Shown piece by piece: positions 11,510 through 49,399 of a stretch of 64,000 nucleotides of DNA. The translations under genes were made by a program, and so were the position numbers. A model generated the notes under the pieces. It did not search any database and had not been told where the DNA came from. It saw nothing but the letters and a program-made list of their open reading frames with translations. Location of the stretch: sequence record PV295200.1. One strand, given 5' to 3'. This stretch comes from Escherichia phage vB_Eco_BCPEco_001. Position 1 is the stretch's first letter, and every line of letters begins with the position of its first letter.

Positions 11510-11554
11510 TTATCAAGGGGCTATTAAGCCCCTATTAAAATGAGGAAAATCAAA

Positions 11555-14122: not shown

Positions 14123-15138
14123 TAATTGAGGCCTGAGTATAAGGTGACTTATACTTGTAATCTATCTAAACGGGGAACCTCTCTAGTAGACAATCCCGTG
14201 CTAAATTGTAGGACTGCCCTTTAATAAATACTTCTATATTTAAAGAGGTATTTATGAAAAGCGGAATTTATCAGATTAAAAATACTTTAAACAATAAAGT
14301 ATATGTAGGAAGTGCTAAAGATTTTGAAAAGAGATGGAAGAGGCATTTTAAAGATTTAGAAAAAGGATGCCATTCTTCTATAAAGCTTCAGAGGTCTTTT
14401 AACAAACATGGTAATGTGTTTGAATGTTCTATTTTGGAAGAAATTCCATATGAGAAAGATTTGATTATTGAACGAGAAAATTTTTGGATTAAAGAGCTTA
14501 ATTCTAAAATTAATGGATACAATATTGCTGATGCAACGTTTGGTGATACATGTTCTACGCATCCATTAAAAGAAGAAATTATTAAGAAACGTTCTGAAAC
14601 TGTTAAAGCTAAGATGCTTAAACTTGGACCTGATGGTCGGAAAGCTCTTTACAGTAAACCCGGAAGTAAAAACGGGCGTTGGAATCCAGAAACCCATAAG
14701 TTTTGTAAGTGCGGTGTTCGCATACAAACTTCTGCTTATACTTGTAGTAAATGCAGAAATCGTTCAGGTGAAAATAATTCATTCTTTAATCATAAGCATT
14801 CAGACATAACTAAATCTAAAATATCAGAAAAGATGAAAGGTAAAAAGCCTAGTAATATTAAAAAGATTTCATGTGATGGGGTTATTTTTGATTGTGCAGC
14901 AGATGCAGCTAGACATTTTAAAATTTCGTCTGGATTAGTTACTTATCGTGTAAAATCTGATAAATGGAATTGGTTCTACATAAATGCCTAACGACTATCC
15001 CTTTGGGGAGTAGGGTCAAGTGACTCGAAACGATAGACAACTTGCTTTAACAAGTTGGAGATATAGTCTGATCTGCATGGTGACATGCAGCTGGATATAA
15101 TTCCGGGGTAAGATTAACGACCTTATCTGAACATAATG
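14123..15138 (+). mobile_element. group I self-splicing intron in td (1016 nt) carrying homing endonuclease I-TevI
   Basis: Exon ends ...TTGGGT; intron starts TAATTGAGGCCTGAG and ends ...ACATAATG (terminal G); contains conserved core blocks GTAGGGTCAAGTGACTCGAAA and ATATAGTCTGATCTGCATGGTGACATGCAGC. Confidence 0.9.
14254..14991 (+). CDS. I-TevI: intron-encoded GIY-YIG homing endonuclease I-TevI
   Basis: 245-aa ORF MKSGIYQIKNTLNNKVYVGSAKDFEKRWKRH... (GIY-YIG motif); located inside td intron. Confidence 0.9.
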   Translation: MKSGIYQIKNTLNNKVYVGSAKDFEKRWKRHFKDLEKGCHSSIKLQRSFNKHGNVFECSILEEIPYEKDLIIERENFWIKELNSKINGYNIADATFGDTCSTHPLKEEIIKKRSETVKAKMLKLGPDGRKALYSKPGSKNGRWNPETHKFCKCGVRIQTSAYTCSKCRNRSGENNSFFNHKHSDITKSKISEKMKGKKPSNIKKISCDGVIFDCAADAARHFKISSGLVTYRVKSDKWNWFYINA

Positions 15139-18999: not shown

Positions 19000-20089
19000 A
19001 AAATGCGCCTTTAAACGGTAACGTTTATCGAAAACTCCTTTAATTGCTGGAAAGTCCTTTATAGGAAAACTAGCAGCCAAGGTTTTGCTTGCACCTTTAA
19101 TTAGTATAATATAAATATGATTATACTTTTAAGAGGATGCACAATTGAACTATAGAAAAATTTGGATAGATGCTAACGGACCTATACCTAAAGATTCTGA
19201 TGGAAGAACATACGAAATCCATCATAAAGACGGTAACCGTGAAAATAATGATTTAGATAATTTGATGTGCCTTTCTATACAGGAACATTATGATATACAT
19301 TTAGCTCAAAAAGATTACCAGGCTTGTCATGCTATAAAGCTTAGAATGAAATATTCTCCTGAAGAAATTTCTGAATTAGCTTCTAAAGCCGCAAAATCTA
19401 GAGAAATCCAGATTTTTAATATCCCTGAAGTACGAGCTAAAAATATTGCCTCTATTAAATCTAAGATAGAAAATGGTACATTTCATCTTTTAGATGGTGA
19501 AATACAGCGTAAATCTAATTTAAATAGAGCTGCATTAGGTATACATAATTTTCAACAAGCTGAGCATATTGCAAAAGTTAAAGAACGCAATATTGCAGCT
19601 ATAAAAGAAGGTACTCATGTATTTTGCGGTGGTAAAATGCAGTCAGAAACTCAATCAAAACGGGTAAATGACGGTTCACATCATTTCTTATCAGAAGACC
19701 ATAAGAAAAGAACATCAGCAAAAACATTAGAAATGGTTAAGAACGGGACCCATCCTGCACAAAAAGAAATCACATGTGATTTCTGTGGTCACATTGGTAA
19801 AGGTCCTGGATTTTATCTAAAACATAATGACAGATGTAAATTAAATCCAAATAGAATTCAATTGAATTGTCCATATTGTGATAAGAAAGATTTATCACCA
19901 TCAACATATAAACGATGGCACGGCGACAATTGCAAAACAAGGTTCAACGACTAGTCTTCGGACGTAGGGTCAAGCGACTCGAAATGGGGAGAATCCCTCC
20001 GGGATTGTGATATAGTCTGGACTGCATGGTAACATGCAGCAGTTCATAAGAGAACGGGTTGAGAATTAGCGAGCTCAATCGAACATACG
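19000..20089 (+). mobile_element. group I self-splicing intron in nrdB (~1090 nt) carrying full-length HNH endonuclease I-TevIII
   Basis: Interrupts NrdB between ...YVSFA and (C)TFNFHKNMEIMEGNAKI; shares core blocks GTAGGGTCAAGCGACTCGAAA and ATATAGTCTGGACTGCATGGTAACATGCAGC with td intron. Confidence 0.8.
19145..19954 (+). CDS. I-TevIII: intron-encoded HNH homing endonuclease I-TevIII (full length)
   Basis: 269-aa ORF from TTG 19145 (AAGAGGA 7 nt upstream); HNH motif EIHHKDGNRENNDLDNLMCLSIQEH; C-terminal Cys clusters (CDFCGH, CPYCD). Confidence 0.8.
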   Translation: MNYRKIWIDANGPIPKDSDGRTYEIHHKDGNRENNDLDNLMCLSIQEHYDIHLAQKDYQACHAIKLRMKYSPEEISELASKAAKSREIQIFNIPEVRAKNIASIKSKIENGTFHLLDGEIQRKSNLNRAALGIHNFQQAEHIAKVKERNIAAIKEGTHVFCGGKMQSETQSKRVNDGSHHFLSEDHKKRTSAKTLEMVKNGTHPAQKEITCDFCGHIGKGPGFYLKHNDRCKLNPNRIQLNCPYCDKKDLSPSTYKRWHGDNCKTRFND

Positions 20090-20592
20090 GTACCTTTAAC
20101 TTCCATAAGAATATGGAAATTATGGAAGGTAATGCAAAGATTATGAAGTTCATTGCACGTGATGAGCAGCTTCATCTTAAAGGCACCCAATATATTATTC
20201 GTCAGCTTCAATCCGGTACTGATGGCGATGAATGGGTTAAAATTGCTCAAGAGTGTGAACAAGAAGCAGTTGATATTTTCATGGAAGTTAACCGCCAAGA
20301 AAAAGATTGGGCAGTTCATTTATTTAAAGATGGAGATGTTCCTGGATTAAATACAAATAGCATGTGGAGCTTTATTGATTACTTAACTGTATCTCGTATG
20401 AAGCAGTGTGGTCTTCCATGCCCAATTACCGATGCTCCGGTTAAACATCCATATCCTTGGATTCGTGAATATCTTAATTCTGATAATGTTCAATCTGCGC
20501 CACAAGAAGTAGAATTGTCATCTTACCTTGTTGCACAGATTGATAATGATGTTGATGATAAAGTTATGATGAGTTTTAAAAAATACTTTTAA
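20090..20592 (+). CDS. nrdB: ribonucleotide reductase small subunit, exon 2
   Basis: ...MEGNAKIMKFIARDEQLHLKGTQYI... continues RNR R2 frame to stop at 20592; 5' boundary inferred. Confidence 0.75.
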
Positions 20593-20596
20593 GGAG

Positions 20597-20612
20597 TGGG
20601 CCGCAAGGCCCA
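20597..20612 (+). promoter_or_regulatory. hairpin between Shine-Dalgarno and start codon of denA (split RBS); may also act as nrdB terminator
   Basis: AAGGAG, then GGGCC-GCAA-GGCCC hairpin, then TTTTATT-ATG(20620). Confidence 0.45.
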
Positions 20613-20619
20613 TTTTATT

Positions 20620-22207
<1,588 letters not shown>

Positions 22208-28570: not shown

Positions 28571-28575
28571 GTTGA

Positions 28576-28604
28576 GGACTCCTTCGGGAGTCCTTTTTTA
28601 TTTT
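28576..28604 (+). terminator. rho-independent terminator
   Basis: GGACTCC-TTCG-GGAGTCC followed by TTTTTTATTTT. Confidence 0.7.
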
Positions 28605-32406: not shown

Positions 32407-32591
32407 AAGCTTACTTAGAAACAATTGTCGTGGCTCAAAAAGAAGGTGGAGATGTTTCTACTTCTGTATCACAAATCATGATTGAATTTATCGATGCATA
32501 TGCTTATAATAAATTCACAGAAACTTTTGATGCTTATGAAAAAGGTCCAAAGTTTGAAATATATCGTACTCTCTTACCTATAGATTATTAA
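32403..32591 (+). CDS. hypothetical protein
   Basis: 62-aa ORF overlapping ligase stop; followed by hairpin terminator. Confidence 0.4.
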   Translation: MKAYLETIVVAQKEGGDVSTSVSQIMIEFIDAYAYNKFTETFDAYEKGPKFEIYRTLLPIDY

Positions 32592-32607
32592 AGGCCTTCG
32601 GGCCTTT
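32590..32607 (+). terminator. hairpin terminator after gene 30 operon
   Basis: AAAGGCC-TTCG-GGCCTTT followed by AATTTTA. Confidence 0.55.
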
Positions 32608-32612
32608 AATTT

Positions 32613-34734: not shown

Positions 34735-36792
34735 ATGGAACTTATTACAGAATTATTTGACGGCGCTTCGGCGCCGGTTGTTAACTTAAATCCTAAGCAT
34801 AAAATACCACAAATTTTTGCTATCCAAACCGGCGAAGAAAGCGTGCTTCCTGGATTTAGATTTTGTACATACACCTCTGGTGGTGATACGAATAAAAACG
34901 TTAAGCCAGGCGATAAAATGATGCATATCGTAATGATAGGTGTCAACGAGAAATTATCGCTGGTTAAGCTTAGAAACTTGGGTGGAAATCCAATTGGCGT
35001 CATTAATGCTGTTTTTGATACTGCTCTTCAAACAATGAAGCAGTATAAAATCGACGCATGCTTATTCCGCGTACTAAAAAGTAAAACAAATGGCGCAGCT
35101 CGTCAAATGCAAGTTATTGCTGACCGTTTAGTACGTACTAAAGGAGCAGGTCGATATGTTCTTTTAAAGGAAATCTGGGACTATGATAAAAAGTATGCAT
35201 ATATTATGGTTTACCGTAAAAATGCCAATTTAGAAGACATTCCAGGTGTACCTCCTATTTCAACTGAGTTATTCACAAAAGTTGAATCAAAGGTCGGTGA
35301 TGTTTATGTAGATGTTAAAACAGGTGATGCTGTTCCTAAAGCTGTCGCTGTTGCTGCTTCTATTGCTTTAGAAAATGATAAGCGCACGGATCAAGCTGTT
35401 ATTCAGAAAACTAAAATTAGTCGTCGATTAGCAGCACAAGCTCAATATTCTACTGTTGATGCTTCACTTCAGGGTGATAGCTTCGCTGCTAAGAAATATC
35501 AAGAGTTTGAATCTAAAGTTCCGGTATATAAAGCAGAAGGACCAATGAACTCTGGCGTTATTCAGATTGGTTCAAACTTCAACAAAGGAGCTATCGGTGG
35601 TATGAGAAGTGCTTCTCGTTTTAAATCTAGCGATTATGAACTAGAAAACTTCCGAAATCATATTGCATTAGCCCATGCACGTTTACGTGATCCATCTATC
35701 AAGTTGCAGAGCGATATAACATATCAAGGTTCTCAAGAATATTTAAAGAATAAAGAATTCTTTGATTATAAAACTGATAAAATTTTAAGCGATCTTGCTG
35801 ACATTAATATTTCTAATAGCTTTGATGTTATTAAGAAAATTATCAATGATTTGGTTAAAGGTTCTAATGCTACGCCAGATGAAAAGACAGCTATTATTCA
35901 ATTTGTCATGAATGGCATTTATAAATTGATTAATGAATCTGCTGCTCAGGCATATGAATATGCAAGTACTGAAGTAACTCCAAAAGGACTGACTCAGGCT
36001 GAGTCTGATGTAATTGAAGATTATTGTGCAGATTCATATGTTGAAATGAACTCGTTCCTTTTGGGTAAACCAGATTCTACCCGTGAAGAATATATGGAAC
36101 GAGCTATTAAGCACATCGAGACGTTGGATTCTGCCTTTGCCAAAGGATCAGTTCTTCCTCCAGGAACTACACTTTACCGTGGACAAGAAGTTACCTTTAA
36201 AACTTTGCGTCATAACATTGAAAACAAAATGTTCTATTTCAAGAACTTCGTATCCACATCGCTTAAACCAAATATCTTCGGTGAGCATGGTAAAAACTAT
36301 ATGGCTCTAGATGATTCCGGCGCAGTATTTTCTGGTGAAGGAGAAGGTTCCGTTGATGCAGAAGATTTGATGCATATGGGTAGTCATTCTACATATGCTA
36401 ATGAAGATGCTGAAACTAGCGTGGGTATGGTAATTAAAGGAGCTGAGCGAATCAAAGTTATCGTTCCAGGTCATTTATCAGGATTTCCATCAGAAGCTGA
36501 AGTTATTCTACCGCGTGGAATTTTACTGAAGATTAATAAAGTAAGTACGTACTTTATGAAAGAAACTGCTTATAACAAGTATCTAATCGAAGGTACAATC
36601 GTTCCTCCTTCTGAACAATTAGAAGAATCAGTATATGATGGCGACCATCTAATGGAAACTGGTGAAGTTCGTCCAATGGTTGGATTTAATCAATTCCTTG
36701 TAGAAGAATCAAAAGAAGAGGAAAACGAAGTTTCTCAAATCTTGGCTTCTTTGGTTAACATCAACGGAATGTCTAAAAAGTTCAAAATGTAG
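34735..36792 (+). CDS. Alt-family mono-ADP-ribosyltransferase paralog (copy 2)
   Basis: 685 aa MELITELFDGASAPVVNL...; homologous to copy 1 throughout; ART motifs LYRGQ, FVSTSL, PSEAEVILPRG retained; divergent central region. Confidence 0.8.
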   Translation: MELITELFDGASAPVVNLNPKHKIPQIFAIQTGEESVLPGFRFCTYTSGGDTNKNVKPGDKMMHIVMIGVNEKLSLVKLRNLGGNPIGVINAVFDTALQTMKQYKIDACLFRVLKSKTNGAARQMQVIADRLVRTKGAGRYVLLKEIWDYDKKYAYIMVYRKNANLEDIPGVPPISTELFTKVESKVGDVYVDVKTGDAVPKAVAVAASIALENDKRTDQAVIQKTKISRRLAAQAQYSTVDASLQGDSFAAKKYQEFESKVPVYKAEGPMNSGVIQIGSNFNKGAIGGMRSASRFKSSDYELENFRNHIALAHARLRDPSIKLQSDITYQGSQEYLKNKEFFDYKTDKILSDLADINISNSFDVIKKIINDLVKGSNATPDEKTAIIQFVMNGIYKLINESAAQAYEYASTEVTPKGLTQAESDVIEDYCADSYVEMNSFLLGKPDSTREEYMERAIKHIETLDSAFAKGSVLPPGTTLYRGQEVTFKTLRHNIENKMFYFKNFVSTSLKPNIFGEHGKNYMALDDSGAVFSGEGEGSVDAEDLMHMGSHSTYANEDAETSVGMVIKGAERIKVIVPGHLSGFPSEAEVILPRGILLKINKVSTYFMKETAYNKYLIEGTIVPPSEQLEESVYDGDHLMETGEVRPMVGFNQFLVEESKEEENEVSQILASLVNINGMSKKFKM

Positions 36793-43461: not shown

Positions 43462-44088
43462 ATGTATGAATACAAATTTGATGTGAGAGTTGGTTCTAAA
43501 ATAATCAATTGTCGCGCATTCACGCTTAAAGAATATCTAGAACTTATTACTGCCAAAAATAATGGTTCAGTAGAAGTAGTTGTTAAAAAGCTAATCAAAG
43601 ACTGCACAAATGCAAAAGATTTAAACCGCCAAGAATCAGAACTATTGTTGATTCATTTATGGGCACATTCTCTCGGTGAAGTTAATCACGAAAACTCCTG
43701 GAAGTGCACCTGTGGAACTGAAATACCAACCCATATAAATCTATTACATACGCAAATAGATGCACCAGAAGACCTCTGGTATACACTGGGTGACATTAAA
43801 ATTAAGTTCCATTACCCCAAAATTTTTGATGATAAAAATATAGCCCACATGATAGTATCATGTATAGAAACGATTCATGCTAACGGGGAAAGCATTCCAA
43901 TTGAAGACTTGAATGAAAAAGAGTTGGAAGATTTATATTCTATCATCACAGAGTCAGATATTGTAGCTATAAAAGATATGCTTTTAAAGCCTACTGTTTA
44001 TTTGGCTGTTCCAATTAAGTGTCCAGAGTGTGGAAAAACCCATGCTCACGTAATAAGAGGACTCAAAGAATTCTTTGAGCTATTGTAA
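43462..44088 (+). CDS. 26: baseplate hub subunit gp26
   Basis: 208-aa ORF, same length as T4 gp26; divergent from gene 51. Confidence 0.85.
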
Positions 44089-44486
44089 TGGCAAATATTA
44101 ATAAGCTTTATTCTGATATTGACCCAGAGATGAAAATGGATTGGAACAAAGACGTTTCAAGATCACTTGGATTAAGGTCAATTAAAAATAGTCTTTTAGG
44201 AATTATTACAACAAGAAAAGGTTCAAGACCGTTTGACCCTGAATTTGGATGCGATTTATCTGACCAACTTTTTGAGAATATGACTCCTCTTACTGCTGAC
44301 ACGGTTGAGCGTAATATCGAAAGCGCAGTAAGAAACTATGAGCCACGTATTGATAAATTAGCAGTTAATGTAATACCGGTTTATGATGATTATACTTTGA
44401 TAGTAGAAATACGCTTTTCAGTCATCGATAACCCTGATGATATTGAGCAGATAAAACTACAACTGGCTTCCAGTAATAGAGTATAA
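44088..44486 (+). CDS. 25: baseplate wedge subunit gp25
   Basis: 132-aa [31 protein letters not shown]..., same length as T4 gp25. Confidence 0.9.
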   Translation: MANINKLYSDIDPEMKMDWNKDVSRSLGLRSIKNSLLGIITTRKGSRPFDPEFGCDLSDQLFENMTPLTADTVERNIESAVRNYEPRIDKLAVNVIPVYDDYTLIVEIRFSVIDNPDDIEQIKLQLASSNRV

Positions 44487-49374: not shown

Positions 49375-49399
49375 AAGGGGCTTCGGCCCCTTTCTTCAT
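49375..49399 (+). terminator. rho-independent terminator after hoc
   Basis: AAGGGGC-TTCG-GCCCCTT followed by TCTTCATTTT. Confidence 0.65.

Follow-up and report, generated by a model that had tools for sequence, protein, structure and literature searches.

A probable split translation initiation region, bridged by an RNA hairpin, at the nrdB-denA junction of Escherichia phage vB_Eco_BCPEco_001

The junction between nrdB and denA, the gene for endonuclease II, in Escherichia phage vB_Eco_BCPEco_001 (PV295200.1) is probably a split translation initiation region of the type found at genes 38 and 25 of phage T4, in which a hairpin would bring a distant Shine-Dalgarno (SD) sequence within reach of the start codon. 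Hairpin-bridged ribosome-binding sites (RBSs) are textbook curiosities, represented by these two T4 late genes. Coordinates are positions in the 64,000-nt stretch of this phage that was analyzed (hereafter the window). The nrdB-denA region of the window is 100% identical to that of Shigella phage SHFML-11 and approximately 98% identical to that of T4, and its gene order (nrdB exon 2, denA, rnlA) is the T4 order. For comparison we used 36 IMG/VR loci encoding DenA (60-99% identity) together with nine GenBank representatives of named genera; a pattern scan of IMG/VR for T4-clade stem variants returned nothing beyond five loci already in this set. We found no paper that treats the nrdB-denA junction as a split site, although an earlier mention in the older T4 literature is possible.

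The open reading frame (ORF) of nrdB exon 2 ends with the stop codon TAA (20590-20592, + strand), and the nrdB coding sequence (CDS) ends at the matching position in MT984581.1 and MK373785.1. The stop codon is overlapped by the denA SD, AAGGAG (20591-20596, +), whose best duplex with the 16S 3' tail ACCUCCUUA has an energy of -8.8 kcal/mol. AGGA within it (20592-20595) was marked as a potential RBS in the 1986 record X04140.1. The core hairpin UGGGCC-GCAA-GGCCCA (20597-20612, +) follows. It consists of a 5' arm (20597-20602), a GNRA tetraloop (20603-20606) and a 3' arm (20607-20612); the G-C arms are GGGCC (20598-20602) and GGCCC (20607-20611), and T20597 and A20612 form a sixth pair. A U-rich tail, UUUUAUU (20613-20619, +), which contains no SD, then leads to the ATG at 20620 that opens the denA ORF (20620-21030, +; 136 amino acids). 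None of GGAG, GAGG, AGGA and AAGG occurs in this tail or in the tails of 24 distinct orthologous leaders. The SD and the AUG are separated by 23 nt (20597-20619), beyond the linear acting range of an SD (over about 15 nt). The hairpin lies wholly between them, and the path along the folded RNA would be about 7 nt, or 9 nt when the five G-C pairs alone are counted. The first-pass annotation of the window had placed AAGGAG 23 nt from the denA ATG, with a GGGCC-GCAA-GGCCC hairpin in between, directly after the nrdB stop; a base-by-base reading showed the distance to be exact and confirmed the hairpin to the base. It had also described the hairpin as inserted between SD and start codon; the evolutionary direction that this word implies is conjectural.

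The geometry of the junction is equal to that of the validated sites of genes 38 and 25, in agreement with the likeness to a few T4 genes proposed at first pass. In these two genes, SD-AUG spacings of 22 and 27 nt are shortened by structure to 5 and 11 nt, and destabilizing mutations reduce initiation (PMC3014915). The gene 25 site was validated by reporter fusions and dimethyl sulfate probing and is stimulated by its hairpin (PMC3014915). We counted the spacing from the last G of GGAG (for gene 25, from the A of GAGGA) to the AUG, and subtracted the Watson-Crick hairpin. Counted in this way, the hairpin shortens the spacing from 23 to 7 nt in denA, from 23 to 7 nt in gene 38 and from 26 to 8 nt in gene 25.

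The denA junction (20590-20622) reads UAA-GGAG, UGGGCC-GCAA-GGCCCA, UUUUAUU, AUG, and that of gene 38 (T4 MT984581.1 159619-159654; L058 1120-1155) reads GCA-UAA-GGAG, AGGGGC-UUCG-GCCCCU, UCUAAAU, AUG. Both have TAAGGAG over the upstream stop codon, a 16-nt hairpin whose extra-stable tetraloop is closed by a C-G pair, a 7-nt tail and AUGAAA. Moreover, the gene 38 hairpin is the very denA hairpin of some orthologues from other genera (L022 and L035, for example). This identity of the gene 37-38 and denA modules suggests, at the level of sequence, a recurrent design, or possibly an exchange of modules. The two sites also differ. Gene 38 is a late gene with a UUCG loop and a mutation-tested site (PMC3014915), whereas denA is prereplicative, has a GCAA loop and is known from its sequence; the denA tail is, in addition, more U-rich and terminator-like. 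The gene 25 junction (window 44057-44090) reads GAGGA, CUCAAAG-AAUU-CUUUGAG, CUAUUGUA, AUG. As in denA, an SD is followed by a hairpin (18 nt), a short tail (8 nt) and the AUG, and the SD can pair partly with the tail. Unlike that of denA, the hairpin of gene 25 is contained within the gene 26 coding sequence and is rich in A-U pairs (-6.4 versus -11.6 kcal/mol), and the SD is weaker (-5.8 versus -8.8 kcal/mol). The gene 25 split region of the window, which overlaps the gene 26 stop codon, served as an internal positive control.

We then took a census of such sites over T4 positions 1-97,000 and 158,500-168,908 and the present window, an area that by coordinate estimate equals one T4-type genome. 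The pattern was an SD, 0-3 nt, a Watson-Crick stem of 5 bp or more, a loop of 3-6 nt, an SD-free tail of 4-10 nt, and a start codon (ATG or GTG) that opens a frame of 30 or more codons. Four matches were obtained: gene 38, gene 25, denA, and an ATG located 175 codons inside a long ORF. The last match (window 7349, - strand; GAGG, TGAACA-GGTA-CGTTCA, GTTTTA, ATG), in an ORF that is probably gene 34, is probably due to chance. Over all ATG triplets, the chance expectation per window is 1.6 for the loose pattern and 0.08 when at least four G-C pairs are demanded. The full motif in this stricter form, with SD, spacer, stem length and SD-free tail as above but with four or more G-C pairs in the stem and ATG as the start codon, was found once in the window, at denA, against 0.08 expected per shuffled window.

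The hairpin itself is stable. The folding energy of the 16-nt core is -11.6 kcal/mol, and that of the 32-nt stretch 20591-20622 is -16.4 kcal/mol (z = -4.6), a value that none of 200 dinucleotide shuffles reached; z-scores of the leader folds range from -3.8 to -4.6. Most lineages carry a C(UUCG)G loop; the T4 clade carries GCAA or GUAA instead. Both C(UUCG)G and GNRA loops belong to extra-stable tetraloop classes. A loop-anchored alignment of 18 distinct orthologous stems was analyzed for covariation. Standard pairs occupied 89.7% of the cells, compared with 75.3% in shuffles, and the covariation score was 0.476, compared with 0.191; doubly changed cells numbered 22, compared with 7.6. None of 500 shuffles reached any of these three values. 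Pairs changed on both sides were five of seven (3.6 in shuffles), with 18 of 500 shuffles as high. The signal collapsed when the partner column was slid. The G-U pairs of the orthologous stems occur on the + strand only, and the structure therefore belongs to the + strand RNA. An element acting at the DNA level or on the minus strand was rejected, since neither these G-U pairs nor the loops (C(UUCG)G and GNRA) would make sense other than on the + strand RNA. Rfam gave no match at gathering score in the whole window, and its matches at 20500-20700 were weak and far below the gathering scores (best E = 0.015). Conservation together with covariation rules out a chance origin. On this comparative evidence, the denA hairpin is a selected RNA structure.

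Not only the hairpin but the whole layout is conserved. In 24 distinct leaders, a TAA overlapped by AAGG(A) is followed by 0-2 nt, a hairpin of 12-18 nt, a tail of 5-10 nt and the ATG. These leaders come from Tequatro-, Mosig-, Kagamiyama-, Gelderland-, Winkler-, Gapriver-, Mosuguk- and Kanagawavirus, from Klebsiella phages and from Yersinia phage TG1, and the layout is present in at least nine genera of Tevenvirinae. The gene 25 arrangement, in contrast, was reported in close T-even phages alone (PMC3014915). Bridged and linear spacings are both tightly conserved, and their comparison discriminates nothing apart from one change. Between EcS1 (Kagamiyamavirus) and X20 (Winklervirus), the flanks are the same and the stem of X20 is 2 bp longer in both arms (L010/L045 versus L014/L047; arms GGGGC/GCCCC versus GGGAGAC/GTCTCCC). 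This matched gain of 2 nt per arm changes the linear SD-AUG distance while the flanks remain unchanged.

Several observations weigh against a split site. The stop-to-ATG distance is nearly constant (26-28 nt) in the orthologues, and this constancy could reflect indel-free descent rather than selection on spacing. The order of elements is hairpin, GAGG, ATG in the Karamvirus CkP1, a Citrobacter phage (L052 150-215), and hairpin, SD (GAGGAAAGGA), ATG in Krischvirus (L041 1140-1200), where the upstream gene is different. The retention of a hairpin with the SD downstream of it indicates that the hairpin has some function apart from bridging. In Yersinia phage fHe-Yen9-01, neither an SD nor a hairpin is present, and the end of nrdB overlaps the start of denA in ATGA; the split arrangement is thus dispensable, and coupling alone can serve. 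Finally, in the predicted ensemble, GGAG (20593-20596) pairs with UUUU (20613-20616) in a lower stem of about 5 kcal/mol, which would partly hide the SD.

Some details of these variants are worth recording. In Krischvirus, AAGGTG also lies directly 5' of the hairpin, though it is not needed there. In fHe-Yen9-01 (KY593455.1, L029 1430-1510), a T4-like nrdB C-terminus is joined to a denA of the TG1/phiR1-RT type, and the join looks like a deletion or recombination junction. The denA CDS of Aeromonas phages overlaps the upstream gene by 4 nt, which was read as ATGA in phage 25. Like such coupled starts, the denA site of the window has an SD over the upstream stop codon and relies on the nrdB transcript; here, however, 27 nt and a stable hairpin part stop and start.

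The assignment of the start codon bears directly on the SD-AUG distance. The denA product is 100% identical to the T4 DenA CDS annotated as amino acids 1-136 in X04140.1, and the ATG start (136 amino acids) is given in that and most other records examined. It could be argued that denA uses another signal, namely a start at the in-frame GTG 20596-20598 (+), or AAGG at 20605-20608 as the SD in an opened hairpin. The GTG is indeed annotated as the start in one T4 record (MT984581.1, L002 1797-2231, equal to window 20596-21030; 144 amino acids), which we regard as an annotation inconsistency, and AAGG, 11 nt from the ATG, is the second of two potential RBS features in X04140.1. The GTG, however, directly abuts the SD and has no SD of its own. 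Among the orthologues, an in-frame upstream start is limited to the T4 clade and one other clade; in-frame stops lie upstream of denA in three lineages, and the frame relative to nrdB varies. Conservation of the protein starts at MK(E/D)IA, that is, at ATG 20620, and the crystallized EndoII construct (PDB 2WSH) consists of a tag followed by MKEIATEY, the start of the 136-amino-acid sequence. We therefore rejected the GTG, whose N-terminal extension is not conserved; use of a different start codon, which the first-pass annotation had named as an outcome that would speak against a split site, was not borne out. AAGG was likewise rejected as an SD, being buried in the -11.6 kcal/mol hairpin and absent from all of the UUCG-loop lineages. 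It is extremely unlikely that either signal is used, and we conclude that the denA start is ATG 20620.

The lower stem raises the question of whether the structure is inhibitory, hiding both SD and AUG by the extended hairpin and an outer helix and thereby limiting synthesis of the nuclease. In the minimum-energy fold of the leader, the stem is extended to 10 bp, GGAG and part of the AUG are paired, and 5.7 kcal/mol must be spent to release the SD from the lower stem. When more of the flanking sequence is folded, CUUUUA (20586-20591) and UGAAAG (20621-20626) form an outer helix that touches the AUG, and the computed probability that the AUG is unpaired is about 0.4-0.6 in T4-clade leaders. There are also precedents in T4, at gene e and I-TevI (PMC3014915). 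The lower and outer helices, however, consist of weak pairs (A-U and G-U) and are not conserved: each lineage has its own flanking pairings, and in close relatives within the T4 clade one C-to-U substitution abolishes the outer helix. No internal late promoter is available to relieve such a block, and the duplex of SD and anti-SD (-8.8 kcal/mol) outweighs the lower stem. The gene 25 SD, moreover, is similarly part-paired and yet stimulated by its hairpin. An inhibitory role thus seems very unlikely. A sequestering hairpin of the gene e/I-TevI type was rejected on the same features, the weak and unconserved pairs and the lack of a late promoter inside the structure. As for the split site, 7.6 kcal/mol is needed to keep the SD and the AUG region unpaired while the core hairpin stays folded, compared with 19.0 kcal/mol for opening everything. 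Initiation with the hairpin folded would therefore be cheaper, and it is also the sole geometry that places the SD in range. A site for RegB at GGAG was considered as well. Its consensus is GGAGRAYARAA, and structure protects against it (PMC3014915); the sequence here, GGAGUGGGCCG, lacks the A-rich 3' context and enters the hairpin, and the candidate was rejected.

The other explanation to be weighed is that the hairpin is merely a terminator, attenuator or 3'-end stabilizer of nrdB, with denA translated by low-level termination-reinitiation in which AAGGAG retains ribosomes. The 6-bp G-C-rich stem is followed by UUUUAUU, and putative terminators are annotated on the hairpin in several GenBank records (by ARNOLD in MK373785.1 and by an unnamed method in MK373775.1). 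At least three U residues occur in the first four nucleotides of the tail in 16 of 21 distinct orthologous tails. The denA hairpin belongs to a common class of T-even intercistronic tetraloop hairpins, which share a short G-C stem, a 4-nt loop and a short U-tract; one of them, the mobE hairpin of the same nrd region, was mapped and terminates weakly (30-50%; PMC2790892). Many similar tetraloop hairpins with longer U-tracts stand after genes in the window. The persistence of the hairpin where the SD lies downstream, and the direct ATGA coupling in fHe-Yen9-01 and the Aeromonas phage, also fit this explanation. On the other hand, no sigma-70-like, MotA-box or TATAAATA motif was found on the + strand at 19118-20620. 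Without a promoter motif before denA, the hairpin must be part of the denA mRNA, and termination there could be no more than partial; denA and rnlA would both depend on such leakage. The denA stem is the shortest among the tetraloop hairpins of the window, and the terminator scan of the window did not list the site, presumably because a G-T-tolerant extension of the stem consumes the T-run. Two orthologues (L033 and L034) keep the hairpin and an 8-nt tail without a U-tract (GUAAAGCU and AUAAAGCU). Unlike the denA hairpin, other hairpins of the window precede a conventional SD or no gene start (for example, those at 11516-11533 and 45699-45684); among them all, that of denA alone has an SD on its 5' side and an AUG 7 nt from its 3' side. 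Termination alone would leave the SD-free tail and the constant AAGG(A) 5' of the stem unexplained. We consider it rather unlikely that the hairpin serves nrdB only. A terminator role as such is compatible with a split site and does not exclude it. The terminator or attenuator function that the first-pass annotation had added for the same hairpin is a plausible prediction that is also annotated in GenBank; the U-tract is short and variable. A search of the literature on 3'-end or terminator mapping in T4 yielded nothing relevant.

Taken together, the out-of-range SD, the bridging hairpin, the SD-free tail, the covariation and the geometry shared with genes 38 and 25 support the split RBS put forward at first pass, insofar as sequence comparison can speak to it. 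The proposed mechanism is as follows. Having no promoter of its own, denA would be read from transcripts running through nrdB. Its sole SD, AAGGAG, overlaps the nrdB stop codon and, at 23 nt from the AUG, would be too far away on linear RNA. The tetraloop hairpin would fold by itself and remove 16 nt from the path, and a 30S subunit bound to the SD would then be about 7 nt from the AUG. Initiation would proceed while the hairpin stays folded.

Judged from these predictions, the hairpin probably has a second role for the nrdB mRNA, either as a 3'-end barrier or as an intrinsic terminator that is weak and leaky. The hairpin is kept both without a U-tract (L033 and L034) and with the SD after it (CkP1); the hairpin is therefore the invariant element. 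The most reasonable view is that one hairpin is put to two uses, bridging on the one hand and termination, or a barrier at the 3' end, on the other. A further hypothesis, that this hairpin couples denA to nrdB translation twice, by transcription attenuation and by translation activation, and that such coupling is conserved across Tevenvirinae, seems to us quite unlikely in this full form. According to it, a ribosome at the nrdB UAA, 4 nt before the stem, would cover the 5' arm. If it followed close behind RNA polymerase, it would block folding of the terminator, and transcription would read through into denA. After the ribosome had left, the hairpin would refold and present the stop-overlapping SD to the AUG, so that denA could be initiated. 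The gene 37-38 junction might work by a similar two-level switch.

If the split site at denA is real, it would be a third case, in a prereplicative gene, and would make the bridged design recurrent rather than a one-off. With clear covariation in at least nine genera, the arrangement is far wider than that reported for gene 25. It also comes with natural controls, namely one phage with the SD after the hairpin and one with neither SD nor hairpin. Gene callers and RBS calculators that assume a linear SD-AUG spacing will misjudge such starts, and the denA start is misassigned in at least one T4 record. The junction also makes it conceivable that one hairpin acts in termination as well as in initiation.

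Some minor observations concern the surroundings of the junction. The denA stop codon overlaps the annotated start of the downstream gene, usually rnlA, in six of the eight other genera fetched (L045-L052); the spacer between denA and the next gene is about 50-55 nt in the window, in T4 and in the Mosigvirus WFK. G-C-rich hairpins with UUCG or UUUC loops occur elsewhere in the window, at 28575-28594, 32587-32610, 34761-34776 and 49375-49392 on the + strand and at 37169-37148, 45699-45684, 50980-50959 and 53053-53034 on the - strand. Several of them have U-tracts or are then followed by a conventional SD, and none has an SD on its 5' side; the family may represent terminators or stabilizers.

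Upstream, the late-promoter motif TATAAATA is present at 19110-19117, just before the ORF of the nrdB intron. This ORF (19145-19954) encodes a full-length HNH endonuclease of 269 amino acids. Its T4 counterpart is a 97-amino-acid remnant annotated as defective I-TevIII, and an active homologue exists in RB3. No Rfam match to a group I intron was obtained at gathering score in the 64-kb window. Two nearly identical hairpins, CTGCATG-GTGA/GTAA-CATGCAG, are located at 15073-15090 and 20022-20039, each preceded by GATATAGTCTG. The latter lies at the 3' end of the nrdB intron, and the two may represent a shared core element of group I introns.

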